A stretch of DNA of 64,000 bases from an uncultured Cytophagia bacterium (lineage in GTDB: Bacteria > Zhuqueibacterota > Zhuqueibacteria > Zhuqueibacterales > Zhuqueibacteraceae), in assembly GCA_964477305.1 (NCBI GenBank), contig CAYZFF010000001.1, positions 7,442-71,441 on the forward strand, in the 5' to 3' direction. This document shows positions 7,019 through 60,526 of the stretch, in pieces. Position 1 is the stretch's first letter, and every line of letters begins with the position of its first letter. The notes beneath the pieces were generated by a model that was not told where the DNA came from, did no database searches, and saw only the letters and a program-made list of their open reading frames with translations. The translations under genes were made by a program, and so were the position numbers.

Positions 7019-7021
7019 GTT

Positions 7022-9829: not shown

Positions 9830-9841
9830 GGATTGATTGTT

Positions 9842-11650: not shown

Positions 11651-14600
11651 ATGGATACGATGATGAACAGTTTCGTCCGGCACAAATTTCAGCAGCTTAT
11701 GCTTGCTTTATCTAACGGCAGGCTCAGCGCTGGAATTTGGGCGTTGGCCATTTTGTTGAGTTGTACGCCGGTTTTCGCACAGACTCCGATTGACGCCGGT
11801 TACCGCGATTTCTCTTATGGTTCCACGGTTTTTGAAGCGCCTACGGCGGACAAGCCGCAGAGCAAGCTGTGGTGGAATGACGGCTCATGGTGGGGCGTGC
11901 TGTGGAATCCCTCAGCGAATAAATATCGCATTCATCGTTTTGATCTGGCGACTCAAAGTTGGGCCAACGTCGGACCGGACGTTGACGACCGTTCACAATC
12001 GCTTTGCGATGCTTTGTGGGACGGGCAAAAATTATATATCGTTTCGCATGTTTATAGCGGCGGCTCGCAAACCAGCGGCGGCGCGTCCGCCTCCAGTTCG
12101 GGACGGTTTTACCGTTACACTTACGAAGCGGCAACAAAAACGTATAGTCTCGAAAGCGGTTTTCCGGTAATCGTGAACAACGCCATCTCTGAAACATTGG
12201 TGCTTGATAAAGATTCGACCGGGAAATTATGGGTGACGTGGACACAATCGAGCAAAGTGTATTTGAATTATTCGGCTAATGACGGCGCCACGTGGGCAAC
12301 GCCCTTTGCCTTGCCGACGCAGGGGGCGAATACGAGCAGCGATGACATTTCAACCTTGATTGCGTTCAATGGCAAATTAGGCGTGGTCTGGAGCAACCAA
12401 AGTGACTCCAAGATTTATTTTTCGGCGCATAAGGACAACGATGCCGCGACGGTTTGGGGCGCGCAAGAAGTGGCGTTGTCCGATCCAAGTCTGGGCGCGG
12501 TGGCGGACGATCATCTCAATATCAAAATGACCAACGATGGCGGCGGTAATTTGTATCTTGCGACGAAGACAAGTTTGAGCGGTACAACCGCCCCCGGAAT
12601 CTATCTGCTCAGGCGTGGTTTTGGCGGCGGCTGGACAAAGTACGTCGTCGCGACGAAGGCCGACGATTACACGCGACCCATCGTGGTGATCGACGACGAA
12701 AATCGCGAGTTGTATGTTTTTGCCAAGAGCAGCAGTTATATTACGAAGAAAAAAGTCAGTTTGGATAATATTAGTTTTCCCTCCGGCAAGGGCGACGCTT
12801 TCATTGAAAGCTCGGACAATTCGGATATCAATGATGCGACCACGTCGAAACATAATGTTAATAGCTTGACTGGAATTCTCATCCTCGCCAGTGATGAAGT
12901 GAACCGCTATTATTATCATAATTATTTGACGTTGGCCGGCAACGGCGGCGCGGCTCCGACGATCAGTTCATTCACACCGACAATCGGGCCGGTGGGCACG
13001 GAAGTGACGATTTACGGCAACAATTTCACCGACGCGACGGCAGTGGCGTTTACTGGCGTGGCGGCAAGTTTCACGGTGAATTCGAATACGCAAATTACCG
13101 CGACGGTTCCGTCCGGGGCGACCACGGGGAAGATTAGCGTGACGAAAGCGACCGGTACCGGCAAGAGTATAAATGTTTTTAATGTCGGATTGCCAACGAC
13201 ACAATATGCCTTATCCGTTATCAACGTGGGTTCTGGAAACGTAACGTTGAATCCAACAGGCGGTACATATGATTCCGGTACGATGGTGACGTTGACGGCG
13301 ACGCCGAACGCGGGTTATCAATTCAACGGCTGGAGCGGCGATTTGAGTGGTTCGACGAATCCCGCCACGATCATGATGGACGGCAATAAAAGTGTAACTG
13401 CGACGTTTGGGATCATCATTCCGAGCGGGCAAGTTGTACATCAGCAAACGGTAACCGGCAGTTCGAGCAGTTCCACGACAGTAGCGACCTCGGCGAGCCT
13501 CGCCGCAATGAACGGTGAACTTTATCTGGCGGCGATTTCGATGGATGCCAAAGTTGCGGTGTCGGCGGTTTCCGGCCTCGGCTTAAACTGGTTGCCGGTA
13601 AAAGTGCAATGTTCCGGTAAAAATAAAACCGCCATTGAGGTTTGGATGGCGCAGGGCGCGCCGAGCAGTAGCGGCACGGTGACCGCGACGTTTGTGTCGA
13701 AGCCGAGCAATGCAGTCATTGCGGTGTCACGTTATGCAAACGTCGATGCGACGGCGCCGCTCGGTAATATGGTTGCGGGAAATACCGCCGGCGTTAATGG
13801 CACGTGTGCTAATGGAGTTGAAGGCAAAACTTATTCATTCAACTTGAATACGACCTTAAATGGTTCGGTGGTTTATGGCGCCGCGGCGATGCGCGATCGC
13901 TCGCACACGCCGGGGTCGGGCTATACCGAACGTGCAGATATCAAAAAGAGCAAAGCCGCGGCGGCCGTGGAAGATAAAGTCATGACAACCGCAGGAACGA
14001 CGACACTCAACGGCACCTTCAGTGGCAGCGTCGATTGGGCCGTCATCGGGCTGGAGATTCGTCCACAATCAAGCAGCGGCGTGCAATTCACCTTGACGAC
14101 GAATGCTAGCGGTTCCGGCAGCGTCACGCCGACGGGCGGCTCATTTAGCGCCGGCGCCATGGTGATGGTGACGGCGACGCCGAGCACGGGTTATCAGTTC
14201 AGCGGCTGGAGCGGCGATTTGAGCGGCACGACGAATCCCGCCACGCTCAGCATGAACACAAATAAATTTGTCACGGCGACGTTTACACCAATACCGGTAA
14301 CGCAATATACGTTAACCACTAACATAAACGGTTTGGGAAATGTAACATTGAATCCGCCGGGCGGTGTTTATAACTCCGGCACGCCGGTGACGTTAACTGC
14401 GACGCCCAACAGCGGTTATCAGTTCAGCGGCTGGAGCGGTGATTTGAGCGGCTCGACGAATCCGGCCGTTATTACGATGGGGGCGAATAAGAATGTAACT
14501 GCGACGTTTACGCCCATTGCGCCGGCACAATTCACCTTGACGATGAACACCACTGGTTCCGGCAGTATTGCGCCGGTTCCGGCAGGAGGAACTTATAATT

Positions 14601-15751
14601 CCGGCACGGTCGTGACGCTGACGGCGACGCCGAATTCCGGTTTTCAGTTTACGGGTTGGAGCGGCGATTTGAGCGGCTCCAGCAACCCGGCGACGCTGGC
14701 GATGACTGCCAATAAAAATATCACAGCTAATTTTTCAAGCATCGGCGGCAGCGGGCAAGTGGTGCATGAAGAAACTGCAATTGGTGGTTCGAGCGCCTCG
14801 ACGACGGTTTCAACTGCGGCGAACCTCACCGGAGCGGCTGGACATCTTTATTTGGCGGCGATTTCGGCGAGATCGAACGTGTCCGCGACCAGCGTTTCCG
14901 GTCTCGGGTTGACGTGGACGCGTGTGCTAACCCAATGTTCCGGCCGCAACATCACCGGCGTGGACGTGTGGATGGCGCAGGGCACACCGACTGGCAATGG
15001 CGCTGTGACGGCGACGCTAGCCAAAGCCCCGGATGCCGCGGTGATTATGGTGTCGCGCTACTCCGGCGCGGATGGAATAGATCCTATTGGCACGCTGGTT
15101 TCCGGCAACACGGCCGGTGGCATCGGTGCGTGCTCCGGCGGCGTCGATAATGCGGCGTACGCCTTCAATTTCACGACGTCCGTAAACGGCGGGATGATTT
15201 ACGGCGCGATCGCGGTGCGGAATAAAACCAATACACCAGGCGCGGGTTACACGGAGCGCGGCGAGTTGATGCAGGCCGGCGCTTCGAGCGCGGCGCTGGC
15301 AGTGCAAGATAAAAGCTTTGCCACCGCCGGTGCCGTGATGTTCAACGGTACGACAAGCGGCGCCGTGGATTGGGCGGTCATCGCGCTGGAGATTAAACCG
15401 CAGCTTTCGATGAGCAAACTTCAGGCTAATGTCGCCACAGTTAATTTGCTGCCGACGGAGTTTGCGCTTGAAACGAATTATCCGAATCCATTTAACCCGA
15501 ACACAGTCATTAGTTTCATATTGCCGCAGACCGCTAATGTGAGATTGAACATCTATGACGTGACGGGCCAATTGATTCGCGTTTTGACCGCTGGGGAAAT
15601 GGCTCCTGGGCGCTATACAGAAAACTGGAATGGCCGCGATAGTTTTAATCGCGCCGTTGCCGCCGGCGCCTATTTGTATCAAATTGTTGTCGAAACTGAA
15701 GACAGCCAGGTCCTCTTTACAGAAACGCGGCGTATGACGTTGTTGAAATAA
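11651..15751 (+). CDS. giant secreted mosaic protein A: WWNDGxWWG N-domain + IPT/TIG + 4 InlB-B-repeat-like units + 2 copies of unassigned 216-aa module + T9SS-type CTD
   Basis: Signal-like N-terminus (AILLSCTPVFAQ). The N-domain runs from GYRDF..SKLWWNDGSWWGVLW to RYYYHNY. One IPT unit (PTISSFTPTIGPVGTEVTIYGNNFT). B-repeats of the form GSGNVTLNP.GG.Y..GT.VTLTATP..GYQF.GWSGDLSG. Modules at 13427 and 14753. CTD NYPNPFNPNTVISF. Confidence 0.8.
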   Translation: MDTMMNSFVRHKFQQLMLALSNGRLSAGIWALAILLSCTPVFAQTPIDAGYRDFSYGSTVFEAPTADKPQSKLWWNDGSWWGVLWNPSANKYRIHRFDLATQSWANVGPDVDDRSQSLCDALWDGQKLYIVSHVYSGGSQTSGGASASSSGRFYRYTYEAATKTYSLESGFPVIVNNAISETLVLDKDSTGKLWVTWTQSSKVYLNYSANDGATWATPFALPTQGANTSSDDISTLIAFNGKLGVVWSNQSDSKIYFSAHKDNDAATVWGAQEVALSDPSLGAVADDHLNIKMTNDGGGNLYLATKTSLSGTTAPGIYLLRRGFGGGWTKYVVATKADDYTRPIVVIDDENRELYVFAKSSSYITKKKVSLDNISFPSGKGDAFIESSDNSDINDATTSKHNVNSLTGILILASDEVNRYYYHNYLTLAGNGGAAPTISSFTPTIGPVGTEVTIYGNNFTDATAVAFTGVAASFTVNSNTQITATVPSGATTGKISVTKATGTGKSINVFNVGLPTTQYALSVINVGSGNVTLNPTGGTYDSGTMVTLTATPNAGYQFNGWSGDLSGSTNPATIMMDGNKSVTATFGIIIPSGQVVHQQTVTGSSSSSTTVATSASLAAMNGELYLAAISMDAKVAVSAVSGLGLNWLPVKVQCSGKNKTAIEVWMAQGAPSSSGTVTATFVSKPSNAVIAVSRYANVDATAPLGNMVAGNTAGVNGTCANGVEGKTYSFNLNTTLNGSVVYGAAAMRDRSHTPGSGYTERADIKKSKAAAAVEDKVMTTAGTTTLNGTFSGSVDWAVIGLEIRPQSSSGVQFTLTTNASGSGSVTPTGGSFSAGAMVMVTATPSTGYQFSGWSGDLSGTTNPATLSMNTNKFVTATFTPIPVTQYTLTTNINGLGNVTLNPPGGVYNSGTPVTLTATPNSGYQFSGWSGDLSGSTNPAVITMGANKNVTATFTPIAPAQFTLTMNTTGSGSIAPVPAGGTYNSGTVVTLTATPNSGFQFTGWSGDLSGSSNPATLAMTANKNITANFSSIGGSGQVVHEETAIGGSSASTTVSTAANLTGAAGHLYLAAISARSNVSATSVSGLGLTWTRVLTQCSGRNITGVDVWMAQGTPTGNGAVTATLAKAPDAAVIMVSRYSGADGIDPIGTLVSGNTAGGIGACSGGVDNAAYAFNFTTSVNGGMIYGAIAVRNKTNTPGAGYTERGELMQAGASSAALAVQDKSFATAGAVMFNGTTSGAVDWAVIALEIKPQLSMSKLQANVATVNLLPTEFALETNYPNPFNPNTVISFILPQTANVRLNIYDVTGQLIRVLTAGEMAPGRYTENWNGRDSFNRAVAAGAYLYQIVVETEDSQVLFTETRRMTLLK
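13427..14068 (+). repeat. unassigned ~216-aa two-Cys module, copy A1
   Basis: In-frame segment GQVVHQQT...LYLAAIS...GLGLNW...QCSGKN...VWMAQG...VSRYAN...GTCANGVE...HTPGSGYTER...VDWAVIGLEIRPQ. Confidence 0.85.
14753..15403 (+). repeat. unassigned ~216-aa two-Cys module, copy A2
   Basis: GQVVHEETAIGGSS...LYLAAIS...QCSGRN...VSRYSG...GACSGGVDN...NTPGAGYTER...VDWAVIALEIKPQ. Confidence 0.85.
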
Positions 15752-15892
15752 GAATAAAACGTAATGCGTCTCGCGTTTACGCAAACGCCGTGAGTGACGT
15801 TATTGAAATAAGTCACATAGGCAAACCCCGGCGGCAGTTGGTGCCGTTGAGGCAAAAGAGTTGTTGGCGATAAAAGTTGTCATTGGAAGACT

Positions 15893-18463
15893 TTGAATCC
15901 ATTTATGTTTTGGATGCAGCAAAAAATAATGAAAAACGGGAGCACAAGGGCGACTATTCGGGTTGTCCTTGTGCGCGTCTGGCTATTGTTGGGCGCGGGG
16001 CTATGTTTTATTTGTGAGGCAAATTGGCAAACAGCGTCGGCGCAATCCATTCCCGTGACGGCGGGGTATCGTGATTTCTATTTTGGCACCTCGGTGAACA
16101 ACACACCGACCGGCGAGAAACCGCAAAGCAAACTGTGGTGGAATGACGGCATTTGGTGGGGGTGCTTGTGGGATCCGATCCGGAAGACCAACACCATTCA
16201 GCGCTTCGAAGTGGCAACACAAAGCTGGTCGAGCACGGGCACGGGAATCGACGAACGATCGAATTCCAAAGCCGATGCGCTGTGGGACGGTAAACAGCTT
16301 TATCTCGTGTCACATATTTTTACACATACACCGATTCCGGCGGCGGAGGCGAATTCCGGGCGGCTTTACCGCTTCAGTTATCGCTCAACCTCGAAGAGTT
16401 ACAGCCTCGATCCGGGTTTTCCGGTGCTGGTCAATCGTTCCCTCTCGGAAACGCTGGTGCTTGCGAAAGATTCTTCCGGGCGGTTGTGGGTGACGTGGAC
16501 AGAGGGCGGCAAAGTGAAAATAAATCGCAGCGTCGGCAATGATCTCACGTGGGGAGCGCCGTTCGATTTGCCGGTGCAAGGCAATGACGTGGTCGAAGAT
16601 GATATTTCCACCATCATCGCATTTGGCGGCAACAAGATCGGCCTCATGTGGTCGAATCAAAATGACAAAACCACGTATTTCGCCGTGCATCGCGACGGCA
16701 ATGCCGATCAAACCTGGGAAGCGCGTGAGACCGCTTTGACCGACTCGAATCTCGGCGAAGTATCGTATGATCATATTAATCTTAAACCCGCATGCGATAA
16801 CGACGGCAATATTTATGCGGCAACGAAAACCAGTTTGGCGCGCAGCGAGCAGCCGTTGACCTACGTTTTAAAAAGAACCGCCGCCGGCGTTTGGTCGCGC
16901 TATCTTTTTGGCAAAGTCAGCGACGCCCACACGCGCCCGATTCTGTTGATCGACAGTGAACATCGCAAGCTCTACGTTGTTGCCACCCATGAGGTGACGA
17001 AAAAGCGCTGGGATATTTATATGAAGAGCAGCGATCTCGACAACATCGTCTTTGCTCCGGGATTGGGAACGCCGTTTATTAAAAGCGAAACGGATACGAT
17101 GATCAATAATCCGTCTTCAACCAAACAATGTTTGAGCGGTCGCACCGGTTTGTTGGTTATTGCCAGCGATCAATCGACCCGGCATTATTTACACAATTTC
17201 AACGATCTGGGCGGCGATCAAAATTTTTATCCGCTCACATTGCATAAAGTCGGCTCCGGCCGCGTGGCTCTAAATCCGCCGAGCGGCCCGTATAAAGCCG
17301 GCACAGTGGTAACGTTGACGGCGATACCGGATTCCGGTTTTCAATTTAATGGTTGGACCGGTGATTTGAGCGGCTTCGCCAATCCGGCGACAATAAAGAT
17401 CGACGCCGCGCGCAAAACAACAGCGATTTTTACGATCAGTAACGGCCGCGGGCAAGTGGTGCATGAAGAAACCAAGACTGGCGGCTCAAGCAATATTACG
17501 AGCGTGGCAACAGCCACGGCGCTTTCCGGTGCATCGAACCGTTTGTATTTGGCGGCGATTGCGACCAAGCCTAAAGTCAGTGTGTCGGGCGTCTCCGGAT
17601 TGGGATTGGAATGGGAACGGGTAAAAACGCAATGCTCCGGCCGTAATCAAACCGGCGTGGAGTTGTGGTTGGCGAAAGGCACGCCGCGCCACAGCGGCGC
17701 CGTGAGCGCGACATTTTCGTCGGCGCCGGTGAATGCCGTGATTGCCGTGTCCCGTTATGCCGGCGCGGATACGGCCAATCCGCTCGGCGCCATGCTCGCG
17801 GGCAATCCGAATGGAGTGAATGGCGCTTGTGAAAATGGCGTCGACAATAATTCTTATTCTTTTGAAATGACGACGACCCTACATGGCGCGATACTTTATA
17901 GCGCGGCGACGATGCGAAATTTGACACACACGCCGGGCGCCGGATTTACCGAGCGAACTGAAATCGTACAGGGCAGTTTCGGGCCGGCAGCGTCGGTGGC
18001 AGTGATGGATCGCCGGCTCACGACGGCGGGCACGGTTGCGGTCAATGGTACGTTTAGCAACAGCTCGGATTGGGCGGTGATTACGGCGGAGATTCGCCCG
18101 TTGGTCACGATGGATGTCAATGGCGTGGTGATTGGCCGCGAGACGCCAAGCGCCTTTGGCTTGACGCAAAACTATCCGAACCCGTTTTCCGCTGAGCGCA
18201 ATTTTGACAATCCGCACACGTTGATTAATTTCTCATTGCCGGAAGCGGGCGAGGTGACGCTGAATATTTATAATGAACTGGGCCGGTTTGTGCGCCAGTT
18301 GGTCGGGGGCAAATACCCGCGCGGCACGTACCAGGTGAATTGGAACGGCCGCGATGACACCGGCCGCCCGGTTGCGACCGGGATGTATTTTTATCAGATC
18401 ATCGTAAAGGGCGATAACGGCAACAACGTTTTTATGCAAACGCGGCGAATGATTTTGTTTTAA
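15893..18463 (+). CDS. secreted mosaic protein B: WWNDGxWWG N-domain + 1 B-repeat + 1 unassigned module + T9SS-type CTD
   Basis: Same N-domain as A, C and E (SKLWWNDGIWWGCLW ... RHYLHNF). B-repeat YPLTLHKVGSGRVALNP. Module at 17450. CTD NYPNPFSAE...LINFSLPEAGEVTLNIYN. The track start is TTG; in-frame ATGs follow at 15905 and 15929, so the true start is uncertain. Confidence 0.8.
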   Translation: MNPFMFWMQQKIMKNGSTRATIRVVLVRVWLLLGAGLCFICEANWQTASAQSIPVTAGYRDFYFGTSVNNTPTGEKPQSKLWWNDGIWWGCLWDPIRKTNTIQRFEVATQSWSSTGTGIDERSNSKADALWDGKQLYLVSHIFTHTPIPAAEANSGRLYRFSYRSTSKSYSLDPGFPVLVNRSLSETLVLAKDSSGRLWVTWTEGGKVKINRSVGNDLTWGAPFDLPVQGNDVVEDDISTIIAFGGNKIGLMWSNQNDKTTYFAVHRDGNADQTWEARETALTDSNLGEVSYDHINLKPACDNDGNIYAATKTSLARSEQPLTYVLKRTAAGVWSRYLFGKVSDAHTRPILLIDSEHRKLYVVATHEVTKKRWDIYMKSSDLDNIVFAPGLGTPFIKSETDTMINNPSSTKQCLSGRTGLLVIASDQSTRHYLHNFNDLGGDQNFYPLTLHKVGSGRVALNPPSGPYKAGTVVTLTAIPDSGFQFNGWTGDLSGFANPATIKIDAARKTTAIFTISNGRGQVVHEETKTGGSSNITSVATATALSGASNRLYLAAIATKPKVSVSGVSGLGLEWERVKTQCSGRNQTGVELWLAKGTPRHSGAVSATFSSAPVNAVIAVSRYAGADTANPLGAMLAGNPNGVNGACENGVDNNSYSFEMTTTLHGAILYSAATMRNLTHTPGAGFTERTEIVQGSFGPAASVAVMDRRLTTAGTVAVNGTFSNSSDWAVITAEIRPLVTMDVNGVVIGRETPSAFGLTQNYPNPFSAERNFDNPHTLINFSLPEAGEVTLNIYNELGRFVRQLVGGKYPRGTYQVNWNGRDDTGRPVATGMYFYQIIVKGDNGNNVFMQTRRMILF
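17450..18100 (+). repeat. unassigned ~216-aa two-Cys module, copy B1
   Basis: GQVVHEETKTGGSS...LYLAAIA...QCSGRN...VSRYAG...GACENGVDN...HTPGAGFTER...SDWAVITAEIRP. Confidence 0.85.
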
Positions 18464-18622
18464 AAATAACGAAGTAAAAGTGAAGTCCGGCTCGTTCCGC
18501 GCAATTTGAGTATATTAGAAAAAATCGCCACATCAGCCGAGCTTCACTCCACACCAAAAAACGAAGTCGTGAAAATGTCAACCGGGAGCCTGAACATCGG
18601 TGGCGTGAGACGAGGAGCACCC

Positions 18623-23644: not shown

Positions 23645-23744
23645 GCTTTTGTCGGTATTAGCAGATATGGCATTGAGCAATTGTCTGGCAAAATATTATT
23701 GCCAGAATCCCGGACGGGATTAACCATAAATCGGGTTGTTTTTT

Positions 23745-23766
23745 CCCGCAACACATTGCGGGTTTA
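23745..23766 (+). terminator. possible terminator hairpin downstream of protein C gene
   Basis: 7-bp stem CCCGCAA (23745..23751) / TTGCGGG (23756..23762), 4-nt loop, followed by TTTAT and preceded by a T-run. Confidence 0.35.
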
Positions 23767-27868: not shown

Positions 27869-27932
27869 GGTTTGAAGTTCAAGTTCAAATGTCCGGGGAC
27901 ATTTGACGCATGTTTGTGAAGAGTTGTTCTGA

Positions 27933-27967
27933 TTGACCGGCCGCCTCCCGCGGCCGGTCAATTTTTT
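27933..27967 (+). terminator. rho-independent terminator downstream of protein D gene
   Basis: Perfect 12-bp GC-rich stem TTGACCGGCCGC (27933..27944) / GCGGCCGGTCAA (27950..27961), 5-nt loop, then TTTTTT (27962..27967). It lies 65 nt after the stop at 27868. Confidence 0.85.
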
Positions 27968-28031
27968 CTAAGGGATAATTTTCGACGATCTCCTCTTGAT
28001 TTTTGATAACGACGCCTGGTAATGGATTGAG

Positions 28032-31000
28032 ATGATACGGAGCTTGAGCATGAGTGTGAGAAGAGGATTCTTCCCCCAAGATCGCGCTTTTAATATGAGG
28101 ACTCTGAAACACCGTAGTACAAATAAAATTTTGATCAAAATAATAACACACGCTGGTCAAGCCGTCCCTCGATATGCGGTTTGGCTTTTGTTTGCTATGG
28201 TTGGTTTGGCGCCGTTGGCCTGGGCCCAGTCCATACCGGTAACGGCCGGTTATCGCGATTTTAATTTCGGCCCCACGACGAACGCCGAGCCGACATTTGG
28301 CAAAACCGAGAGCAAGTTGTGGTGGAATGACGGCTCGTGGTGGGGCGTGCTGTGGAATGCTGCTGCAAATCGTTATGAAATTTATCGGCTGAACGCCGCA
28401 ACGCAAAGTTGGGTCGCCACCAATACGGCCGTTGACACGCGCAATGGCTCGCGGCCGGACGTGTTGTGGGACGGACAGCGGCTTTATGTGGCCTCGCATT
28501 TTTATACAACCAGTCCCGGCCCAACCACGGCGACGTATTTTAGCAAGCTCTATCGCTACAGCTACAATCTGACAACGAAACAATATAGCGGCGATCCTGG
28601 TTTTCCGGTGAATATCAACAGTTCGAAATCCGAAACGTTGACCATCGATAAAGACACCACCGGCAAATTGTGGATTACGTGGATGGAGAAGAACAAAATC
28701 ATGATTAACCGCACCGTGGGCAGCGACCTGACGTGGGGCGCGCCGTTCGTTTTGCCGGTGCAAGGTGCTGACACGGATCCCGACGATATCTCCGGTCTCG
28801 TATCGTTTGGCGGCAACAAAATCGGCGTCATGTGGTCGAACCAAAAGGACTCAACGATTTATTTTGCCGTGCACGCCGACGGCGCCGCCGATCAAACCTG
28901 GAAGCCGCGCGAGATTGCTCTTTCCGGCCTCGGTCTGGGCCGCGTCGCCGAAGATCATTTTTGTTTGAAGCCGGCGCGCGACAACAGCGGCAATCTGTTC
29001 GCGGTGACGCAAACCAATCTCTCCGGCTCGTCCGCCACCAGTATTTTTGTGTTAAAACGCAGTACCCTCGGCGCGTGGACGCGGCATGTTTTTTCCACTG
29101 GCGGTTTTAATCACTCGCGTCCGCAACTTGTGGTCGACAGCGAGAATAAACGTTTGCATGTGTTTGCGCGCAGTAACGACACCGGCCCCGCGAACATTTA
29201 TTTAAAAAGCGTGAGCCTGGAGGATTTGGTTTTTCCCTCCGGCCTCGGCACCCCGGTGATTCAAAGCGTGGCGGACGTCAATCTCACGAACCCCGCCGCC
29301 ACCAAGCAAAACGTTAACCGCACCACCGGCTTGTTAATCTTGGCGGCAGACAAAGACAGCCGGTATTATTTGCACGGCAAGGTCGATTTGAGCAGTTCGC
29401 CGCAAATTACCGCTTTTTCTCCGGCCCAAGGGGTGATCGGCACGCAAGTGACCATGATCGGCATGAATTTCACCGGCGTCTCAGCCGTAAAATTTAACGG
29501 CATTCCCGCGACGTTTACTGTGCTTTCGGGCACGCAGTTGCGCACGACGGTTCCGGCGGGCGCGACCACGGGAACGATCAGCCTGACCAATTCCACCGGT
29601 AGCGGCGCGACCTTGACGAATTTTGTCATACAGCGCGCGCTCAAAGTTTCCACGCTTGGCTCCGGTAATGTCACCGTGAATCCGCCGGGTGGCGTTTATA
29701 ATGAAGGGCTTGCCGTCACCTTAACGGCAGTGCCGGCTGCTGGTTGGTTTTTTCATGATTGGAACGGCCATCTCGACGGGACCAATGCCACCGCCACCAT
29801 TACGATGAATACGGATAAAAACATCACCGCCGAGTTTCGTGAGATTGGAAAATTTACGGTCACGGTAAATGTCAACGGCGCCGGTAGCATCACACTGAGT
29901 CCGCCGGGCGGTTTGTATTTCAACGGGACGATGGTGACCTTGGTCGCCACCCCGGCGCCGGGATATGTGTTTAGCGGCTATTCCGGCGGATTCAAAGGCT
30001 GGAAAAGCATCGAGACGTTGGCGGTGAACGGCAACAAGATTTTGACGGCTACATTTTCGCCGCAACCGGTGCCGCGTTTTGCCGCCGGGATTTGGACGAG
30101 CGCAACGGAAATCAGCAAACTGCCGGCAACCGGATTGGCGTGGAATAATTTGAAAGCTGGGGCCGACGAACCAATTGGCAAGCCGAATCTTGCAGACCTT
30201 GAAGACTCCGTGAACGTGGCGATTCTGGCGAAGGCCCTGGTTTATGCGCGCACCGGCAATGAAATTTACCGGCAGGCGGTGATCGCGGCATGCATGCAGG
30301 CTATCGGCACCGAAGGCACGGAAACCCTCGCGCTGGGCCGCGAGTTGCTCGCGTATGTGCTCGCGGCGGATCTGGTGAAATTACCGGCCAGCGACGATGC
30401 GACGTTCCGCACCTGGCTGCGTCTCTTGCTGGCTAAAAATATCGGCTCGCAATCGTTGCGCACCTCGAACGAGAGCCGTCCGAATAACTGGGGCATGCAT
30501 TGCGGCGCCACCCGCGCGGCGATTGCGCGTTATCTTGGCGACGCGACGGAACTCGAACGCACGGCGCGTGTTTTTAAGGGCTGGCTCGGCGATCGCAACA
30601 CGTATGCGGATTTTTCCTACAGCCTCAACGAGTTGTGGTGGCAATCCAATCCCGCCGCGCCGGTTGGCATCAATCCAGTGGGCGCGATGATTCAGGGCCA
30701 TTTGGTTGATGGCGTGTTGCCGGATGATCAACGCCGGGCCGGGCCGTTTACCTGGCCGCCGGTGCCGGAGAATTATGTGTACGGCGCGTTGCAGGGCGCG
30801 TTGATGCAAGCAACGATTCTCTATCGCGCCGGTTATGACGTGTGGAACTGGGAAAATCAAGCGCTGCGGCGCGCCATGCAATGGTTATATCAAGAAGCGG
30901 ATTACCCGGCGGACGGCGACGATGAATGGCTGCCGCATATCGTTAATCATTTTTATGGCGCTGCTTTTCCAGCGCCGATGCCGGCGCCACCGGGAAAAAA

Positions 31001-32651
31001 TGCCGGCTGGACGGATTGGCTTTATGGTTCGAAGTATGCGCTGACGAAAACCGATAACAACGGTGATATCGAAATTCAAGCGCTCGGTTTCAATAAAGAC
31101 AGTTTGGCCGTGATCAAATTGACCGCGATTTCCTTTGCGGATTACTCGTTTAGCGGTTGGAGCGGCAGTTTAAGCGGCACAAAAAATCCTGATACGCTGG
31201 TGATGAACGCCAATAAAAATGTAATCGCCAATTTTGTGAAGAGTGGCAATTTTACGCTAACAGTTACGCCGATAGGCTCGGGTACAGTCACACTAAATCC
31301 GCCGGGCGGTGTTTATGTCGGCGGCACCACCGTCATGTTGACGGCGAAACCCGCGGCGGGATTCAAATTTACCGGTTGGAGCAATGGCTTGAGTGGCGCA
31401 ACCAATCCGGCCAGTTTGACCATCAACGCCAATAAAAATATTACCGCGACGTTCAAGCCAATTTATAGTTTGAATGTGGAGGTGGCTGGCGCCGGAAAAG
31501 TGACGCTCTTTCCGTCATCCGGCCTTTATGAAAACGGCACGGTGGTGACTTTGATTGCAACGCCGGATAGCGGCCAGCAGTTTTTAGGTTGGAGTGGCGA
31601 TTTAAGCGGCACCGCCAATCCGTTGGCGTTTGTGATGAATGCCAACAAGAATGCGACCGCCAATTTTACGGCGGTGCGTGTGGTGCATGAAGAAACGCAA
31701 ACCGGCGGCTCGAGTTTTGGGTCAACCGTCGCGACGGCAGCAAGCCTCAGTGGCGGAGCCAATTATCTTTATTTGGCTGCCATCACCACGCGGCCGAAGA
31801 TTAAAGTAAATGCAGTGGCAGGCCTCGGATTAAACTGGAAACAAGTGAAAGCGCAATGCTCCGGACGCAATAATCTCGGCGTTGAATTGTGGATGGCGCA
31901 AGGCATACCGGCTGCGGCCGGCGCGGTAACGGCCACACTTGCCTCAACCGCGACCAATGCGGTCATCGCGGTGTCGCGCTATTCCGGCGCTTCGACGGTG
32001 ACTCCGCTGAGTACGGCAATTGCCGGTAATAATAAAGGCGTGAATGGAACTTGCACCGGTGGCATTGATAATGCTTCCTATTCGTTTAATCTGACCACCA
32101 CCGATGCGGGTGAAACCGTTTTCGGCGTCGCCGGCCTGCGCAATAAAACCCACACGCCGGCGGTAGGCTCGACCGAACGCGCAGAAATCAAGCAGGGAAC
32201 GAATAGCAATGTCGCGGCGATGGCGGTGACCGACAAAATCGTTCCGCTGGCGAGTGCGACCACGGTTAGCGGCGCTTTTAGCGGCGCGACGGATTGGGCC
32301 GTCATTGCAGTTGCCATCAAACCGTTGGCAGCGAGTCTCTCCATCGGTGCCGAATTGACCAAAGCCCGCGTGAATTCCACTGCGCCGAAAGATTTAACGT
32401 TGTTACAAAATTATCCGAATCCGTTTAATCCGACGACAGTCATTGCTTACTCTTTGCCGCAGGAAATGCGCGTGACGCTCAACGTTTATAACCTCACGGG
32501 ACAGTTGGTTGCCACGCTGGTTGAAGGTTCGCAACCAGCCGGCCAGCATGAAGTGATCTTTGACGCGGCCACATTGCCGAGCGGAAATTATTTTACGGTT
32601 TTGCAAGCAGGGGAGACGAAGTTGGTGCGACGAATCGTGTTGATGAGATAA
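28032..32651 (+). CDS. giant secreted mosaic protein E (paralogue of C): WWNDGxWWG N-domain + 1 IPT/TIG + 2 B-repeats + alginate-lyase-like domain + 3 B-repeats + 1 unassigned module + T9SS-type CTD
   Basis: Collinear with protein C. The lyase-like domain is 30078..31028 (GIWTSATEISKLP...RPNNWGMHCGATRAA...NAGWTDWLYG). Module at 31677. The start is uncertain: in-frame Met codons at 28032, 28050 and 28095 precede the signal-like AVWLLFAMVGLAPLAWAQ. Confidence 0.8.
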   Translation: MIRSLSMSVRRGFFPQDRAFNMRTLKHRSTNKILIKIITHAGQAVPRYAVWLLFAMVGLAPLAWAQSIPVTAGYRDFNFGPTTNAEPTFGKTESKLWWNDGSWWGVLWNAAANRYEIYRLNAATQSWVATNTAVDTRNGSRPDVLWDGQRLYVASHFYTTSPGPTTATYFSKLYRYSYNLTTKQYSGDPGFPVNINSSKSETLTIDKDTTGKLWITWMEKNKIMINRTVGSDLTWGAPFVLPVQGADTDPDDISGLVSFGGNKIGVMWSNQKDSTIYFAVHADGAADQTWKPREIALSGLGLGRVAEDHFCLKPARDNSGNLFAVTQTNLSGSSATSIFVLKRSTLGAWTRHVFSTGGFNHSRPQLVVDSENKRLHVFARSNDTGPANIYLKSVSLEDLVFPSGLGTPVIQSVADVNLTNPAATKQNVNRTTGLLILAADKDSRYYLHGKVDLSSSPQITAFSPAQGVIGTQVTMIGMNFTGVSAVKFNGIPATFTVLSGTQLRTTVPAGATTGTISLTNSTGSGATLTNFVIQRALKVSTLGSGNVTVNPPGGVYNEGLAVTLTAVPAAGWFFHDWNGHLDGTNATATITMNTDKNITAEFREIGKFTVTVNVNGAGSITLSPPGGLYFNGTMVTLVATPAPGYVFSGYSGGFKGWKSIETLAVNGNKILTATFSPQPVPRFAAGIWTSATEISKLPATGLAWNNLKAGADEPIGKPNLADLEDSVNVAILAKALVYARTGNEIYRQAVIAACMQAIGTEGTETLALGRELLAYVLAADLVKLPASDDATFRTWLRLLLAKNIGSQSLRTSNESRPNNWGMHCGATRAAIARYLGDATELERTARVFKGWLGDRNTYADFSYSLNELWWQSNPAAPVGINPVGAMIQGHLVDGVLPDDQRRAGPFTWPPVPENYVYGALQGALMQATILYRAGYDVWNWENQALRRAMQWLYQEADYPADGDDEWLPHIVNHFYGAAFPAPMPAPPGKNAGWTDWLYGSKYALTKTDNNGDIEIQALGFNKDSLAVIKLTAISFADYSFSGWSGSLSGTKNPDTLVMNANKNVIANFVKSGNFTLTVTPIGSGTVTLNPPGGVYVGGTTVMLTAKPAAGFKFTGWSNGLSGATNPASLTINANKNITATFKPIYSLNVEVAGAGKVTLFPSSGLYENGTVVTLIATPDSGQQFLGWSGDLSGTANPLAFVMNANKNATANFTAVRVVHEETQTGGSSFGSTVATAASLSGGANYLYLAAITTRPKIKVNAVAGLGLNWKQVKAQCSGRNNLGVELWMAQGIPAAAGAVTATLASTATNAVIAVSRYSGASTVTPLSTAIAGNNKGVNGTCTGGIDNASYSFNLTTTDAGETVFGVAGLRNKTHTPAVGSTERAEIKQGTNSNVAAMAVTDKIVPLASATTVSGAFSGATDWAVIAVAIKPLAASLSIGAELTKARVNSTAPKDLTLLQNYPNPFNPTTVIAYSLPQEMRVTLNVYNLTGQLVATLVEGSQPAGQHEVIFDAATLPSGNYFTVLQAGETKLVRRIVLMR
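31677..32324 (+). repeat. unassigned ~216-aa two-Cys module, copy E1
   Basis: RVVHEETQTGGSS...LYLAAIT...QCSGRN...VSRYSG...GTCTGGIDN...HTPAVGSTER...TDWAVIAVAIKP. Confidence 0.85.
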
Positions 32652-32819
32652 GGTCCGAGGCCAGTGGCCCCGAAGTCGAAACGGAGTGTCAAGCTTCAGT
32701 CTGACGCTGATTAGCGGCGCATGAACGGATGGAAAACAGGGATTAAGCTCTGAACAAGTGGGCGGAAATGAGCGCAAAAAATATAAAGGGACTTTGTAGA
32801 ATTAACGGTGAGAAGATTT

Positions 32820-35800
32820 ATGAATAATTTAGGACGAAGATTTCGAGCCATGAGGGCAGCTTTAGTTTTAGGAATATTGGAGCGTGTTCAATCAAATCGA
32901 TGCCCCCAAAATAAAAAAATTTCCTTGACGCGATCTTTTCATTTCTGCGCCTTCGCGTGCTGGCTTGCTTTGGGTGCATCGGCATGGGCGCAAGGCCAAC
33001 AGATTATTTTTTCCGCCACCGGCGACGTGCCGTATAATTCCACCGAGACCGCAACGTTTCAACAACAGCTCACCAATCATAATAAATACAGTCCGTCAGC
33101 CTTTTTTGTGCACCTCGGTGATGTTTTTCTCGGCGGCGAGCCGTGTGATAGCGCGCATTATGCGCCCATCGCCAATATGATGAAAAGCCTCGCCGTTCCG
33201 GTTTACACCATTCCGGGAGACAACGAAACCATTGATTGCGATACCGCGGCCGTGGGGCTAATGCGGTGGAAACAGTATTTTATTAACTACGAACAAAATT
33301 TTTGCGGCGCGACGCCGACCGTCCACCAAGCGGCGCGCCCGGAAAATTGGGCTTTCCTCAAAGACGGTGTGCTGTTCGTCGGCATCAACATGGTCGGCGG
33401 CAGCAGTCCGTATCAACTGGACGCCGATTGGATTGCCGAGCAGTTGGCAACGCATGGAACACAAGTCCGCGCCGCAGTGATTTTGTCACATATCGGACCG
33501 GACAAGAGCACGACGTTTTCCACACCGTTTCGCCAGGCCGCCGCGGCGTTTGGCAAGCCGGTGCTGTTTCTACATGGACACGGCCACGCGTGGAGTACGG
33601 GCTATCCTTTTCCCGAGCCGAATATTTTTCGCGTGCAAGTTGAAAACGGCTCGGCTGAAGATCCCGTCGAAGTCACCGTCACGATGGATGTAACCTCGCC
33701 GGCCACCGCGTTTGTTTTAAAACGCAATCCGTGGACGAGCCAAACAATCGTCAATATGCCGCCGTGCGTGGATGCCGGGCCGGATCAAACGATTATTTTT
33801 CCGCAAAGCGCAACGTTGACCGGCGGCGCGAGCGATGACGGCGACCCTATTTCACCGGGAACGCTCACGACGGTGTGGAGCAAAATCAGTGGGCCGGGCA
33901 CGGTGAATTTTGCCAATGCGAATGCGCTCAACACCACGGCGAGTTTCGGCAGCATCGGCATTTATGTTTTGCGTTTGACCGCCGATGACGGCGTTTTGCA
34001 AACGAATGATGAGGTGACTATCGAAGCGAGCGATGGCGTGCCGATCATCACCTCATTCAGTCCCATCGAAGGCGCTGCTGGAACTGAAGTCACGCTGACC
34101 GGAAATTATTTTAGCGGCGCGACGAGTGTCACCTTCAACAATTTAGGCGCGGCGAGTTTTGTGGTGGATAATGCCACCCAAATTCGCGCCACGGTTCCGG
34201 TTGGCGTCACAACTGGCAAAATTCGTATCACCAACACCAATGGGACCGGCGTTAGCGCGACGGATTTTACCGCGCGCTATGCTTTGGCGTTGAGCACGTT
34301 CGGGTTCGGCGACGTCACACTCAATCCAGCCGGCGGTATTTATGAGGCGGGAACCGTGGTTACTTTGACCGCAACACCGGCGCTCGGTTTTCAATTCTCC
34401 GGTTGGAGCGGCAATTTGAGCGGCTCCAGCAACCCTGCAATGCTGACGATGAACGCGGATAAAAACGTCACCGCAATTTTTACCTCCACGAGTCCGATTG
34501 GGCAAATCACGCACGAAGAAACACGCACCGGCGGTTCCTCAAGTTCGACGACTGTGAAAACTTCGACGGCGCTGACCGCCGTTGGCGGCCAACTTTATCT
34601 TGCGGCGATTTCGACGCGGCCCAAAGTGAGCGTGACTTCTGTCTCCGGGCTTGGCCTGTCGTGGACATTGGTGAAAGCGCAATGCTCCGGACGCAACGCC
34701 ACGAGCATTGAGGTTTGGAAAGCCTTCGGCACGCCGTCGGGCAACGATACGGTGCGCGCCACGCTGGCGAGCGCGCCGAACAATGCAGCCCTTGCCGTCT
34801 CGCGCTATTCCGGCGTTGAAAGTGTGGCGCCGATCGGCAATTTTATTTCCGGCAACACGATAGGTTTGAACGGCGCGTGTTCCGGCGGCGTCGATACGAG
34901 TTTTTATTCTTTTAATTTGACGACGACGGCCAATAACGCGATGATTTACGGCGCTGCCGCGATGCGCGCCAAAACCCATGCGCCGGGCGCTGGTTACACC
35001 GAGCGCGCGGAAATATTGCAGGGTGGCGTGAGCAACACCGCCGCCTCGGTGGCGATTGAAGATCAAACTTTCGCGACGGCAGGAACAAACATCATCAATG
35101 GCACCCTCAGCAGCAATGTCGATTGGGCCGTGGTCGCGTTGGAAATGCGGCCGCAACTCACTTTGACTTTAAACACCACTGGCTCCGGCAGTATCACGCT
35201 CAGTCCGCCGGGCGGCGAATACAATCCGGGCACGGTGGTGACTTTGACTGCAACGCCGGCGACGGGCTTTGAGTTTAGCGGTTGGAGCGGCGATTTGAGC
35301 GGATCGAATAATCCCGTTACGCTAACGATGAGCAGCAACAAAATTGTAACAGCGATTTTTACGCCGCAATTAACGCTCACGACCAACACTATTGGCTCAG
35401 GCACGTTAACGCTGAATCCGGCTGGCGGTATTTATAACAGCGGCGTGGTGGTGAGATTAACCGCAACACCCGCGATGGGATTTCAATTTAGCGGCTGGAG
35501 CGGCGATTTGAGCGGCGCGGCCAATCCGGATTCATTAACAATGAACGAAAATAAAACGGTGACGGCAACATTCATCGCATTGCCGCCGCCACAATATAAT
35601 TTGACCGTGAATAAAATCGGCTCGGGCACGGTGACACTCGATCCGGCCGGCGGCGTTTATAATGAGAATACCAAAGTGCGCTTGACGGCAACGCCGGCAC
35701 AGGATTATGAGTTCACCGGCTGGAGCGGCGATCTGAGCAGCGCCTCGCCGCTGGATTCGCTAACAATGAATGCGAATAAAACCGTCACGGCAACATTTAC

Positions 35801-37676
35801 GCAATTGTCTGCCGCGGTCACACACATGGAAACGCGAATCGGCGGCGCTTCTAACTCGACAACGGTGACGACGCTCGGCAATCTTACCGCGGCGAGCGAT
35901 CATCTTTACCTCGCGGCGATTTCGATGCGGCCCAAAGTCAGCGTCGTTTCCGTTTCCGGCCTCGGTTTGAATTGGACATTGGTGCGCTCGAAATGTGCCG
36001 GCCGCAACACCACCGCAATTGAGGTGTGGATGGCACAAGGCACACCAACCGGAAGCGGCCCGGTGACGGCGGCCTTTGGCAGCGCGCCAAGCACTGCCGT
36101 GATAGCAGTCTCGCGTTATTCCGGCGTGGCAACAACAAACCCAATCGGCAACACGTTAGCCGGCAATACCAATGGCGCGAATGCGAGCGGCGCGTGCGCC
36201 GGCGGCGTTGATAAAAACTCGTATTCATTCAACCTCAACACCACGTTGAACGGCGCGGTGATTTATGGCGCGGCGGCATTGAAAGCGCGAACGCACACGC
36301 CGGGCGCTGGTTATGCGGAGCGCACTGAAGTTCATCAAGCGAGTGGCGCGAACACCAGTGGGCTCGCCGTGGAAGACAAAGCCATTGCTTCACCCGCCAC
36401 GATTGCAGTTAACGGCTCTTTCGGCGGCGTGGTGGATTGGGCGATGGTAGCGTTGGAGATCAAGCCGCGCGTGGTGTCGCAATATACGCTGACGGTGAAT
36501 ACGGTCGGCTCCGGCAATGTGACGTTGAATCCACCGGGCGGAATTTACCATCAAGGTACGCAGGTAACATTGACCGCCATCCCCACGATAGGATTTCAGT
36601 TTAATGGCTGGAGCGGCGCGCTCGCCGGATTGAACAATCCCGCCACAGTGCTGATCGACAGCAATAAAACCGTCACTGCCAATTTTGTCGCCAACGGCTC
36701 GATTGTGCATGAAGAAACCCAAAGCGGCGGTTCGGCCAATTCGACAATGGTGAAAACCGCGGCACTGGTAACCGGCGTGAGCGATCATGTTTATCTTGCC
36801 GCGATTTCGATGCGGCCCAAAGTGAAAGTGAATAGCGTGGCCGGCCTCGGATTAAATTGGACGCTGGTACGCGCCAAATGCGCCGGGCGCAACACCACCG
36901 GCCTCGAAATTTGGATGGCGCAGGGCGAGCCGAGCCGCGATGATTCGGTGCAAGCGATTTTCGCGAGCGCGCCGACCACCGCCGTGATCACGGTCTCGCG
37001 CTATTCCGGCGTGAATATTTCCGCGCCGCTCGGCAATATCGTCGCAGCGAACACGGTTGGTTTGAATGGCAGCGCGACTTGCAGCGGCGGCGTGGATAAC
37101 AACGCATATTTATTTAATCTCACCACCACAACCAACGGCGCGTTAATTTACAATGCCGTCGCGTTAAAAGCGCGCACGCACACCCCGGGCGCTGGTTACA
37201 CCGAGCGCCTCGAAGCGCAACAAATTGGCGGCAATCTCAACACAACGGTAGCACTGGCAGATCGCCACATTACCACGGCAGGAGTTGCCACGGTCAACGG
37301 CACCTTCAACGGCGCGGTGGATTGGGTCGCGGTTGCAGTGGAAATTAAACCGGAAACGCCGTTGAGCAAAAAAGGCCGCGACGCAGAAAATGCCCAACCA
37401 GTTGAATTGCCCGCGGCTTTTTATCTGGCGCAAAATTATCCGAATCCGTTTAATCCGGCTACGGTGATTTCGTATGGTTTGCCGAACGCCGCACGTATCA
37501 CGCTGAAAGTTTATAATCTCACCGGTCAGCTCGTTGCCACGCTGGTTGATGGCGAACAAACCGCCGGCCGTCACGAAGTGATGTTCAATGCCGCGCGCCT
37601 GCCGAGCGGCAATTATTTCACGGTTTTGCAAGCTGGCTCGATGCGATTGGTGCGACGCATGGTATTGATGAAATAA
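32820..37676 (+). CDS. giant secreted mosaic protein F: calcineurin-like metallophosphoesterase + PKD-like domain + IPT/TIG + 5 B-repeats + 3 unassigned modules + T9SS-type CTD
   Basis: MPE motifs: ATGDVPY, VHLGDVF, IPGDNE, LHGHGHAW. PKD-like region DAGPDQTI...LTADDGVLQTNDEVTI. Modules at 34500, 35814 and 36696. CTD NYPNPFNPATVISY. The track ORF starts at GTG 32808; the first ATG is 32820. Confidence 0.8.
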   Translation: MNNLGRRFRAMRAALVLGILERVQSNRCPQNKKISLTRSFHFCAFACWLALGASAWAQGQQIIFSATGDVPYNSTETATFQQQLTNHNKYSPSAFFVHLGDVFLGGEPCDSAHYAPIANMMKSLAVPVYTIPGDNETIDCDTAAVGLMRWKQYFINYEQNFCGATPTVHQAARPENWAFLKDGVLFVGINMVGGSSPYQLDADWIAEQLATHGTQVRAAVILSHIGPDKSTTFSTPFRQAAAAFGKPVLFLHGHGHAWSTGYPFPEPNIFRVQVENGSAEDPVEVTVTMDVTSPATAFVLKRNPWTSQTIVNMPPCVDAGPDQTIIFPQSATLTGGASDDGDPISPGTLTTVWSKISGPGTVNFANANALNTTASFGSIGIYVLRLTADDGVLQTNDEVTIEASDGVPIITSFSPIEGAAGTEVTLTGNYFSGATSVTFNNLGAASFVVDNATQIRATVPVGVTTGKIRITNTNGTGVSATDFTARYALALSTFGFGDVTLNPAGGIYEAGTVVTLTATPALGFQFSGWSGNLSGSSNPAMLTMNADKNVTAIFTSTSPIGQITHEETRTGGSSSSTTVKTSTALTAVGGQLYLAAISTRPKVSVTSVSGLGLSWTLVKAQCSGRNATSIEVWKAFGTPSGNDTVRATLASAPNNAALAVSRYSGVESVAPIGNFISGNTIGLNGACSGGVDTSFYSFNLTTTANNAMIYGAAAMRAKTHAPGAGYTERAEILQGGVSNTAASVAIEDQTFATAGTNIINGTLSSNVDWAVVALEMRPQLTLTLNTTGSGSITLSPPGGEYNPGTVVTLTATPATGFEFSGWSGDLSGSNNPVTLTMSSNKIVTAIFTPQLTLTTNTIGSGTLTLNPAGGIYNSGVVVRLTATPAMGFQFSGWSGDLSGAANPDSLTMNENKTVTATFIALPPPQYNLTVNKIGSGTVTLDPAGGVYNENTKVRLTATPAQDYEFTGWSGDLSSASPLDSLTMNANKTVTATFTQLSAAVTHMETRIGGASNSTTVTTLGNLTAASDHLYLAAISMRPKVSVVSVSGLGLNWTLVRSKCAGRNTTAIEVWMAQGTPTGSGPVTAAFGSAPSTAVIAVSRYSGVATTNPIGNTLAGNTNGANASGACAGGVDKNSYSFNLNTTLNGAVIYGAAALKARTHTPGAGYAERTEVHQASGANTSGLAVEDKAIASPATIAVNGSFGGVVDWAMVALEIKPRVVSQYTLTVNTVGSGNVTLNPPGGIYHQGTQVTLTAIPTIGFQFNGWSGALAGLNNPATVLIDSNKTVTANFVANGSIVHEETQSGGSANSTMVKTAALVTGVSDHVYLAAISMRPKVKVNSVAGLGLNWTLVRAKCAGRNTTGLEIWMAQGEPSRDDSVQAIFASAPTTAVITVSRYSGVNISAPLGNIVAANTVGLNGSATCSGGVDNNAYLFNLTTTTNGALIYNAVALKARTHTPGAGYTERLEAQQIGGNLNTTVALADRHITTAGVATVNGTFNGAVDWVAVAVEIKPETPLSKKGRDAENAQPVELPAAFYLAQNYPNPFNPATVISYGLPNAARITLKVYNLTGQLVATLVDGEQTAGRHEVMFNAARLPSGNYFTVLQAGSMRLVRRMVLMK
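34500..35156 (+). repeat. unassigned ~216-aa two-Cys module, copy F1
   Basis: GQITHEETRTGGSS...LYLAAIS...QCSGRN...VSRYSG...GACSGGVDT...HAPGAGYTER...VDWAVVALEMRPQ. Confidence 0.85.
35814..36467 (+). repeat. unassigned ~216-aa two-Cys module, copy F2
   Basis: AVTHMETRIGGAS...LYLAAIS...KCAGRN...VSRYSG...GACAGGVDK...HTPGAGYAER...VDWAMVALEIKP. Confidence 0.85.
36696..37352 (+). repeat. unassigned ~216-aa two-Cys module, copy F3
   Basis: GSIVHEETQSGGSA...VYLAAIS...KCAGRN...VSRYSG...ATCSGGVDN...HTPGAGYTER...VDWVAVAVEIKP. Confidence 0.85.
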
Positions 37677-60524: not shown

Positions 60525-60526
60525 TT

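Follow-up and report, generated by a model that had tools for sequence, protein, structure and literature searches.

What is the two-cysteine module that recurs 11 times in six adjacent proteins of an uncultured bacterium, and what does it do there? The DNA in question is a stretch of 64,000 nucleotides (hereafter, the window) from an uncultured Cytophagia bacterium (GTDB lineage Bacteria; Zhuqueibacterota; Zhuqueibacteria; Zhuqueibacterales; Zhuqueibacteraceae; NCBI GenBank assembly GCA_964477305.1, contig CAYZFF010000001.1, positions 7,442–71,441 of the forward strand). Within it, six consecutive open reading frames (ORFs) on the plus strand, A–F, encode large proteins that share a segment of about 216 amino acids (aa), which an initial annotation made from the sequence alone had singled out and left without a family. 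Here, we report that the segment represents a real family of extracellular domains, old and widely distributed, which is curated in no database, and that its homology to phage minor-tail and baseplate proteins, although distant, can be demonstrated. As to its function, we lean toward non-catalytic glycan binding of the kind known from carbohydrate-binding modules (CBMs).

Position and Divergence of the Eleven Module Copies

ORF translation, extraction with a hidden Markov model (HMM), and HMM scanning of the window in all six frames each gave 11 collinear in-frame copies of 212–218 aa, of which two are in A, one in B, one in C, three in D, one in E, and three in F. The number, the distribution, and (to within one codon) the coordinates agree with the initial annotation, and the six-frame scan revealed no twelfth copy on either strand. 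The copies, all on the plus strand, are A1 (13430–14065; aa 594–805 of A) and A2 (14756–15400; aa 1036–1250); B1 (17453–18100; aa 521–736 of B); C1 (22661–23308; aa 1386–1601 of C); D1 (24029–24676; aa 30–245 of D), which directly follows the signal peptide, D2 (25151–25798; aa 404–619), and D3 (26282–26929; aa 781–996); E1 (31677–32324; aa 1216–1431 of E); and F1 (34503–35153; aa 566–782 of F), F2 (35814–36467; aa 1003–1220), and F3 (36699–37352; aa 1298–1515).

Pairwise protein identity among the 11 copies was 44–61% (mean 52%) over ~216 aa, and pairwise DNA identity was 55–66% (mean 60%), so the earlier estimate that the copies are about three quarters identical in nucleotides was too high. 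Because the protein identity extends over ~216 aa, and because independent metagenomic homologues match the module at E = 1e-108 to 1e-38, the similarity lies far beyond what chance would produce. Across the copies, 39 alignment columns were invariant, including both cysteines, E167, and D206–W207. The histidine of the HTPG motif (His159) and the arginine of the YxER motif (R168), which had been listed with these residues as invariant or nearly so, are each replaced in one or two copies: His159 by Asn in A2 and D1, and R168 by Gln in D3.

The median synonymous divergence (dS) between the paralogues was 1.47, i.e., the synonymous sites are near saturation, and the ratio of nonsynonymous to synonymous divergence (dN/dS) was 0.28. 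A related metagenome-assembled genome (MAG) of an uncultured Cytophagia bacterium, CAYUVM01, was assembled independently and is syntenic with positions 9851–40781 of the window at 85–98% nucleotide identity; its version of the array is borne by contigs L015, L002, L018, and L008. In the seven orthologous module pairs between the two genomes, dN/dS was 0.04–0.13: 0.04 for A1 (the L015 orthologue of which has 98.6% protein identity) and D1, 0.05 for D2, 0.07 for F1, 0.08 for D3, 0.09 for F3, and 0.13 for E1. The module copies are thus under strong purifying selection, and each of them is being kept. The initial annotation had taken the copies for maintained paralogues and not recent assembly duplicates, and the data argue that they are indeed old; the DNA identity, which is lower than first estimated, and the near-saturated dS strengthen this view. 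We give practically no weight to the explanation that the repeats are an artefact, produced by assembly duplication or by chance low-complexity similarity: the copies differ at ~40% of their nucleotides, and hundreds of homologues exist in other metagenomes. We found no point in favor of an assembly artefact, which is refuted by the nucleotide divergence and by the separate orthologue that each copy has in the independent MAG. In the same comparison with CAYUVM01, genes A–E had 92–98% DNA identity, whereas gene F had only ~83–85%, and gene F is thus evolving or recombining faster than its neighbors.

A Widespread Family Absent from Databases

When 1.84 billion representatives of clusters (at 50% identity) were searched exhaustively with HMMER, the module was detected in 1,147 of them at E ≤ 1e-3, in 857 at 1e-10, and in 491 at 1e-30. 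The 1,147 clusters all come from uncultured bacteria, which belong to several phyla. The proteins of the family contain one to four copies, and mostly one or two. We located the module at 40 genome loci, all of them in MAGs, which belong to KSB1, Calditrichia, Acidobacteriota, Anaerolineales, Myxococcota, and Delta- and Gammaproteobacteria. In a sample of 44 family members, the partner Pfam families were B-repeats, the C-terminal tails of type IX secretion system (T9SS) cargo, Ig-like spacers (ASH, HYDIN, DUF1573, and CARDB), CBM96, TIG, Calx-beta, Metallophos, F5/8C, and alginate lyase. Minimal proteins were also found, such as P0008, which consists of a signal peptide, one module, and a T9SS tail, with no catalytic domain. 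In a near-complete genome (GCA_964656755.1; a 4.7-Mb contig, L047:8001–12331), a 423-aa protein with a partial module that retains both cysteines adjoins a 1,006-aa Peptidase_C25 (gingipain-like) protein, a context that differs from the exopolysaccharide (EPS) locus of the window.

The initial annotation could not assign the module to a known family, and the database searches led to the same result. No model in Pfam, NCBIfam (including its choice-of-anchor models), or PHROGs covers any of the 11 copies at E values up to 10, and the scans of these libraries yielded only single-copy noise (best E 0.13, 0.052, and 0.02). Sequence-profile searches of the PDB with the module alignments and with a phage alignment (A3, described below) gave chance-level matches only (Cam1, E 0.33; CEL-III, E 0.027). 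Similarly, the existing Pfam annotation of the module homologues never covers the module, and we found no description of the domain in the literature on the InlB B-repeat (PF18998) or on mycobacteriophage tail structures. The module is undescribed in the libraries and literature that we searched, and no structure of it has been solved; the link to phage tails and the proposed gain of a cysteine-stapled loop, both considered below, are new observations.

Predicted Fold of the Module

Copy B1 was modeled with AlphaFold2 using an alignment of 56 sequences, and the model had a predicted local distance difference test score (pLDDT) of 97.8, a predicted template modeling score (pTM) of 0.93, 16 beta strands, and no helices. 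The module is predicted to be an all-beta, sandwich-type domain of ~216 aa and 16 strands, consistent with the beta-sandwich suggested initially. When this model was compared with the PDB using Foldseek, there were no matches at E ≤ 1e-3 and the template modeling (TM) scores were below 0.3; weak jelly-roll matches to tombusvirus coats, GH11, and integrin, at TM < 0.3, were rejected as evidence. Neither sequence-profile nor fold matches to PDB chains placed the module in a family with a solved structure. The match to a characterized family that would have removed its novelty was thus looked for both with HMMs and with AlphaFold2 and Foldseek against the PDB, and none was found. Mean-field direct coupling analysis (DCA) supported contacts between loops, which we judged insufficient to name the fold.

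Relationship to Phage Tail and Baseplate Proteins

A Foldseek search of predicted viral structures (BFVD) with the same model returned 69 matches at E ≤ 1e-3, which span the whole domain with TMq values of 0.7–0.8 and root-mean-square deviations of 2.5–3.7 Å. The top matches had a probability of 1.00 and TMq values of 0.73–0.80, and the Tweety protein A5YJY9 had a TMq of 0.71. The matching proteins are uncharacterized proteins of uncultured Caudovirales and minor tail proteins of mycobacteriophages (Gaia, Hawkeye, PP, Tweety, Tonenili, and others). For these phage relatives, the name “minor tail protein” is an annotation (PMC2884959). Tweety gp21 has 296 aa and is encoded in a tail gene run, after a minor tail protein of the D-Ala-D-Ala carboxypeptidase type. 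When the module family was aligned with the Tweety gp21 family using hhalign, the probability was 90.5% (E 1.3e-6) over 192 collinear columns, corresponding to the C-terminal 192 aa of gp21; the phage profile (A3) is shallow, the homologue search with gp21 having given four sequences, and this tempers the hhalign probability. Because a structure match and a sequence match both support it, we regard the homology between the module and the phage proteins as established, if distant. The N-terminal 100 aa of gp21 (L001:14144–14455), before the domain that matches the module, consist of repeated units resembling GFGLELxPQVGM. The gp21-type domain was found in 512 mycobacteriophage genomes.

Closer phage relatives were also found. 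A stand-alone 242-aa homologue on a 100-kb IMG/VR contig (IMGVR_UViG_3300033417_000002; L043:7995–8723) matched the module HMM at E 8.5e-47; it lies in a tail gene run, with tape-measure and Dit-like genes upstream and a minor tail gene downstream. In this protein, C61 is replaced by V and C126 by D, and the HTPG..ER motif is lost. Another homologue, P0284, matched the module HMM at E 1.6e-22, and its gene directly follows a Baseplate_J-like gene. Furthermore, a 1,152-aa fibre-like phage protein (IMGVR_UViG_3300036859_000587; L044:6588–10046) contains an internal copy without cysteines at aa 426–635; the same protein has many ~11-residue repeats of the AQAVETDxAQ type and a second beta-rich insert. 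A second viral scan, queried with the L043 protein, matched only that protein itself. A tblastn search with the module against 50,697 phage genomes from GenBank gave no match, so the link to cultured phages is remote. The genes of the window itself encode bacterial T9SS cargo within an EPS locus, and only the cysteine-less relatives are found in tail gene clusters. To say that the module has no relatives would be too strong: it matches no curated family, but it is related to phage minor-tail and baseplate proteins.

Two Cysteines, Co-evolution, and a Probable Conserved Loop Patch

Both cysteines were present in all 318 of the full-length bacterial copies, the lone apparent exception being a one-column shift in the alignment, and 289 of these 318 copies contain exactly two cysteines. 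In phage homologues that keep the Gly/Asn-rich loop, the two are replaced together (by V and D in L043, and by T and G in P0284), and in more distant phage forms C61 is missing together with the whole loop; among the bacterial and phage homologues that we compared, none had just one of the two cysteines. Mean-field DCA on 315 sequences (effective number of sequences, Neff, 276) ranked R64–D131 second overall, and K58–N123, G63–N120, Q60–S116, and Q60–R155 were also among the top couplings. These top pairs indicate that the segment around C61 contacts the loop around C126. Taken together, the joint retention of the cysteines in the bacterial copies, their joint loss in phages, and the R64–D131 coupling lend indirect support to the initial proposal that the domain is disulfide-stabilized. 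A C61–C126 disulfide, formed after export, very probably staples the loop to the end of strand 5, and the pattern in which the pair is kept in secreted copies and missing from virion copies, which are assembled in the cytoplasm, fits the formation of such a bond after export.

Across the family, His159 is Asn in 18 of the 318 copies, and R168 is variable. DCA also pairs R168 with D186, and because of this pairing and that of Q60 with R155, several of the residues that look catalytic are probably internal salt bridges. Half of the columns with ≥ 90% conservation fall in loops, and four conserved segments (58–67, 116–131, 154–165, and 204–208) were mutually coupled in the top-L DCA pairs. Because these four loop segments co-evolve, they probably form a single conserved surface patch, which the putative disulfide would staple.

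Domain Architecture of the Six Proteins

The architecture of proteins A–F was established from ORF translations and domain scans. Protein A (1366 aa; 11651–15751, plus strand) comprises, from the N- to the C-terminus, a signal peptide, a sialidase-like beta-propeller, a TIG-like region, a B-repeat, A1, three B-repeats, A2, and a T9SS sorting domain. Protein B (856 aa; 15893–18463, plus strand) is shorter, with a signal peptide, the propeller, one B-repeat, B1, and a T9SS tail. Proteins C (1712 aa; 18506–23644, plus strand) and E (1539 aa; 28032–32651, plus strand) share a longer layout: in C, the propeller, three TIG domains, two B-repeats, an alginate-lyase-like domain, three B-repeats, C1, and a T9SS tail; in E, the propeller, one TIG domain, two B-repeats, an alginate-lyase-like domain, three B-repeats, E1, and a T9SS tail. 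Protein D (1308 aa; 23942–27868, plus strand) has a signal peptide, D1, two B-repeats, D2, two B-repeats, D3, one B-repeat, an F5/8 type C domain, and a T9SS tail, and no catalytic-type domain was detected in it by the domain scans. Protein F (1622 aa; 32808–37676, plus strand) contains a metallophosphoesterase-like domain, a PKD domain, a TIG-like region, a B-repeat, F1, three B-repeats, F2, a B-repeat, F3, and a T9SS tail.

Pfam identified 25 divergent InlB B-repeats (PF18998) across A–F, while the module regions stayed without annotation in the whole-protein scans. The alternation of modules and B-repeats noted at the outset is regular, with a B-repeat directly before every module except D1, and in five of the six proteins the last module abuts the linker of the T9SS tail. 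All six are marked as T9SS cargo by a Por_Secre_tail, CHU_C, or FlgD_ig match at the C-terminus, and N-terminal hydrophobic leaders are seen in the translations of the array proteins. The N-terminal domain of ~400 aa shared by A (11780–12970), B (16040–17215), C (18728–19900), and E (28224–29390) has no Pfam match; it was modeled as a sialidase-like beta-propeller (pLDDT 85.9), the best PDB neighbors of which are a putative neuraminidase (4irt), GH145 enzymes, and PL25 and PL24 ulvan lyases (TM 0.5–0.6). The propeller is probably the catalytic part of the four proteins.

Genomic Setting of the Array

The genes that flank the array constitute an EPS locus, which includes a Wzz-like GNVR protein, a ParA-type kinase, a priming sugar transferase, GT2 and GT4 glycosyltransferases, a flippase, and Wzy (48589–50106), together with a heptose-type nucleotide-sugar set (SIS, GHMP kinase, HAD, and nucleotidyltransferase), an ATP-sulfurylase fusion, and a sulfotransferase. 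The nucleotide-sugar set, a nucleotidyltransferase, a GHMP kinase, a HAD phosphatase, and a SIS-domain isomerase at 6302–8677 and 41148–41744, is split across the six-gene array and looks like a GDP-heptose-type pathway, so that the EPS may contain heptose. Immediately upstream of the array are a right-handed beta-helix protein (8816–9829) and a protein that combines a phytase-like beta-propeller and a T9SS tail (9833–11266), which are further secreted proteins of the locus. Downstream, a stand-alone ORF (47447–48502) is alginate-lyase-like, and Pfam places it in one family with the internal domains of C and E. Beyond Wzy, a 720-aa protein in which a pyruvate-kinase barrel, a PUA-like domain, and an ATP-sulfurylase are fused (50257–52419) adjoins the sulfotransferase (52574–53482), and the product of the locus is probably a sulfated exopolysaccharide; the joining of a pyruvate-kinase barrel to an ATP-sulfurylase is unusual. 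Farther on, at 56213–62008, there are genes for a CotH-like protein, two DUF4956 proteins, a metallophosphoesterase, and a VTC-domain protein, which may be related to polyphosphate and are unrelated to the module.

Possible Functions of the Module

The setting of the module leads us to favor, with somewhat better than even confidence, a role as a non-catalytic, CBM-like glycan-binding module. This view is based on its tandem display on B-repeat spacers; on partner domains that resemble polysaccharide enzymes and lectins (the propeller, the alginate-lyase-like toroid, the metallophosphoesterase, and F5/8C); and on its export by the T9SS, its place in an EPS locus, and an ancestry in common with the host-recognition hardware of phages. 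The module is joined to the propeller (GH145-, PL24-, PL25-, or sialidase-like) in A, B, C, and E and to the alginate-lyase-like domain in C and E, while in protein D and in proteins of the P0008 type there is no catalytic domain alongside it. Phage tail and baseplate accessory proteins are the parts by which tailed phages recognize their hosts. General support, which does not concern the module itself, comes from baseplate accessory proteins of mycobacteriophages, which have CBM-like domains and are reported to bind mycobacterial cell-wall glycans on arrays (PMC13252515).

The module and the domain on phage tail and baseplate accessory proteins descend from a common ancestor, and, according to this proposal, the bacterial branch would have gained the Gly/Asn-rich loop (columns 119–131), stapled after export by the C61–C126 disulfide. 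The modules, displayed one to three per protein on InlB B-repeat spacers and exported by the T9SS, would hold the proteins on cell-surface or matrix polysaccharide or target them to it, and several copies per protein may add avidity.

Some observations weigh against a glycan-binding role. No homologue of the module with a characterized ligand was found, and the phage relatives are themselves functionally uncharacterized. The conserved patch hardly differs between phyla or among the 11 paralogues, which is unusual for a binder of strain-specific EPS; such conservation would be equally compatible with a common ligand, a metal site, or a catalytic site. Moreover, the existence of module-only proteins such as P0008 means that the module can be the sole functional domain of a protein.

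The last two points bear on the possibility that the module acts outside the cell as a small enzyme, for instance a lyase or hydrolase of polysaccharides, an esterase, or a Cys/His/Asp hydrolase, with its active site in the conserved loop cluster. The polar loop residues Q60, R64, R101, Y102, N118, D131, Y135, R155, H159, E167, and D206 would be suited to this, as would the conservation of the patch across phyla and the proteins in which the module stands alone between a signal peptide and a T9SS tail. Lyases and hydrolases with a beta-jelly-roll exist in families PL7 and GH11, GH12, and GH16, and the weak matches in the PDB included the jelly rolls of GH11 and tombusviruses. However, we consider an enzyme unlikely. 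The comparison with the PDB gave no match to an enzyme fold, the two cysteines behave as a structural pair, and R64–D131, R168–D186, and Q60–R155 co-vary as internal salt bridges or hydrogen bonds would. Neither the HTPG..ER motif nor the cysteine loop is conserved in the phage homologues, His159 is Asn even within the window (in two copies), and R168 tolerates change. In addition, one to four tandem copies among spacers, beside separate catalytic-type domains, form a pattern typical of binding modules. The specific case of a Cys/His/Asp(Glu) hydrolase, which the initial annotation had already ranked second, is disfavored by the pairing of the cysteines, by the His159-to-Asn replacement, and by the R168–D186 covariation, and no hydrolase fold or peptidase or hydrolase HMM was matched.

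It would also be conceivable that the module serves protein–protein interactions or acts as a structural spacer, possibly oligomerizing into a surface layer or fibril, without any glycan ligand. The phage tail homologues belong to oligomeric virion assemblies, the module co-occurs mostly with Ig-like spacers (ASH/HYDIN, DUF1573, CARDB, and TIG), and the three copies each in D and F could imitate a trimer. We regard this, too, as improbable: spacers rarely keep so many invariant polar loop residues at a dN/dS of 0.04–0.13, the copy number in the family is mostly one or two and not three, and the module goes with polysaccharide-enzyme-like domains and EPS genes. The CBM-like role is the reading that we retain. 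A more far-reaching version of it, which we offer as a conjecture with rather little chance of being correct, is that a phage receptor-binding domain was taken over (or donated) by several uncultured phyla and hardened by a disulfide, and constitutes a new CBM family that recognizes a surface or matrix glycan with broad conservation; the arrays would then anchor the enzymes that process EPS to the matrix of the same cell and, more speculatively, mask the glycan receptors of related phages.

Significance of the Family

The family is large, with over 1,100 clusters (at 50% identity) and as many as four copies per protein, and it occurs in giant surface proteins of KSB1, Calditrichota, Acidobacteriota, Chloroflexota, and Myxococcota. 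A definition of the family would provide an annotation for thousands of regions now labeled “hypothetical,” and it could add a new family of the CBM type to the biology of polysaccharide matrices. The phage homology offers an initial clue to the function of mycobacteriophage “minor tail proteins,” a very large group that is uncharacterized. Furthermore, the module would be a clean natural example of a domain that gains a disulfide on moving from a cytoplasmic virion assembly to the secreted proteome.

Comparison with Known Systems

The nearest relatives of the module are the C-terminal domain of mycobacteriophage minor tail proteins (of the Tweety gp21 type and the cluster A “gene 6” type) and uncharacterized tail or baseplate accessory proteins of Caudovirales. 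They have the same predicted fold and share a GLGLxW-type hairpin and the motifs TPxGG(T/Y)x(R) and (D/T)WA..A..L.P with the module. In contrast, they lack both cysteines, the distant ones also lack the loop at columns 119–131, and they are virion proteins from tail gene clusters, either standing alone or ending fibre-like proteins, and not T9SS cargo. The module resembles the choice-of-anchor domains of NCBIfam in lying just upstream of the C-terminal sorting domain in five of the six proteins, but no NCBIfam model matches it at E values up to 10. With the CBMs of secreted polysaccharide-active enzymes (such as CBM32/F5-8C, CBM96, and CBM6/35), it has in common a beta-sandwich that does not look catalytic, an arrangement in tandem with Ig-like or B-repeat spacers, and attachment to polysaccharide-enzyme-like domains in exported proteins, and it co-occurs with CBM96 and F5/8C. 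However, neither in sequence nor in structure does it match any CBM for which a Pfam model or a solved structure exists, and at 216 aa and 16 strands it is larger than most CBMs. The array does not represent a new kind of system; the module is a new accessory component within the familiar modular architecture of secreted glycan-active proteins.

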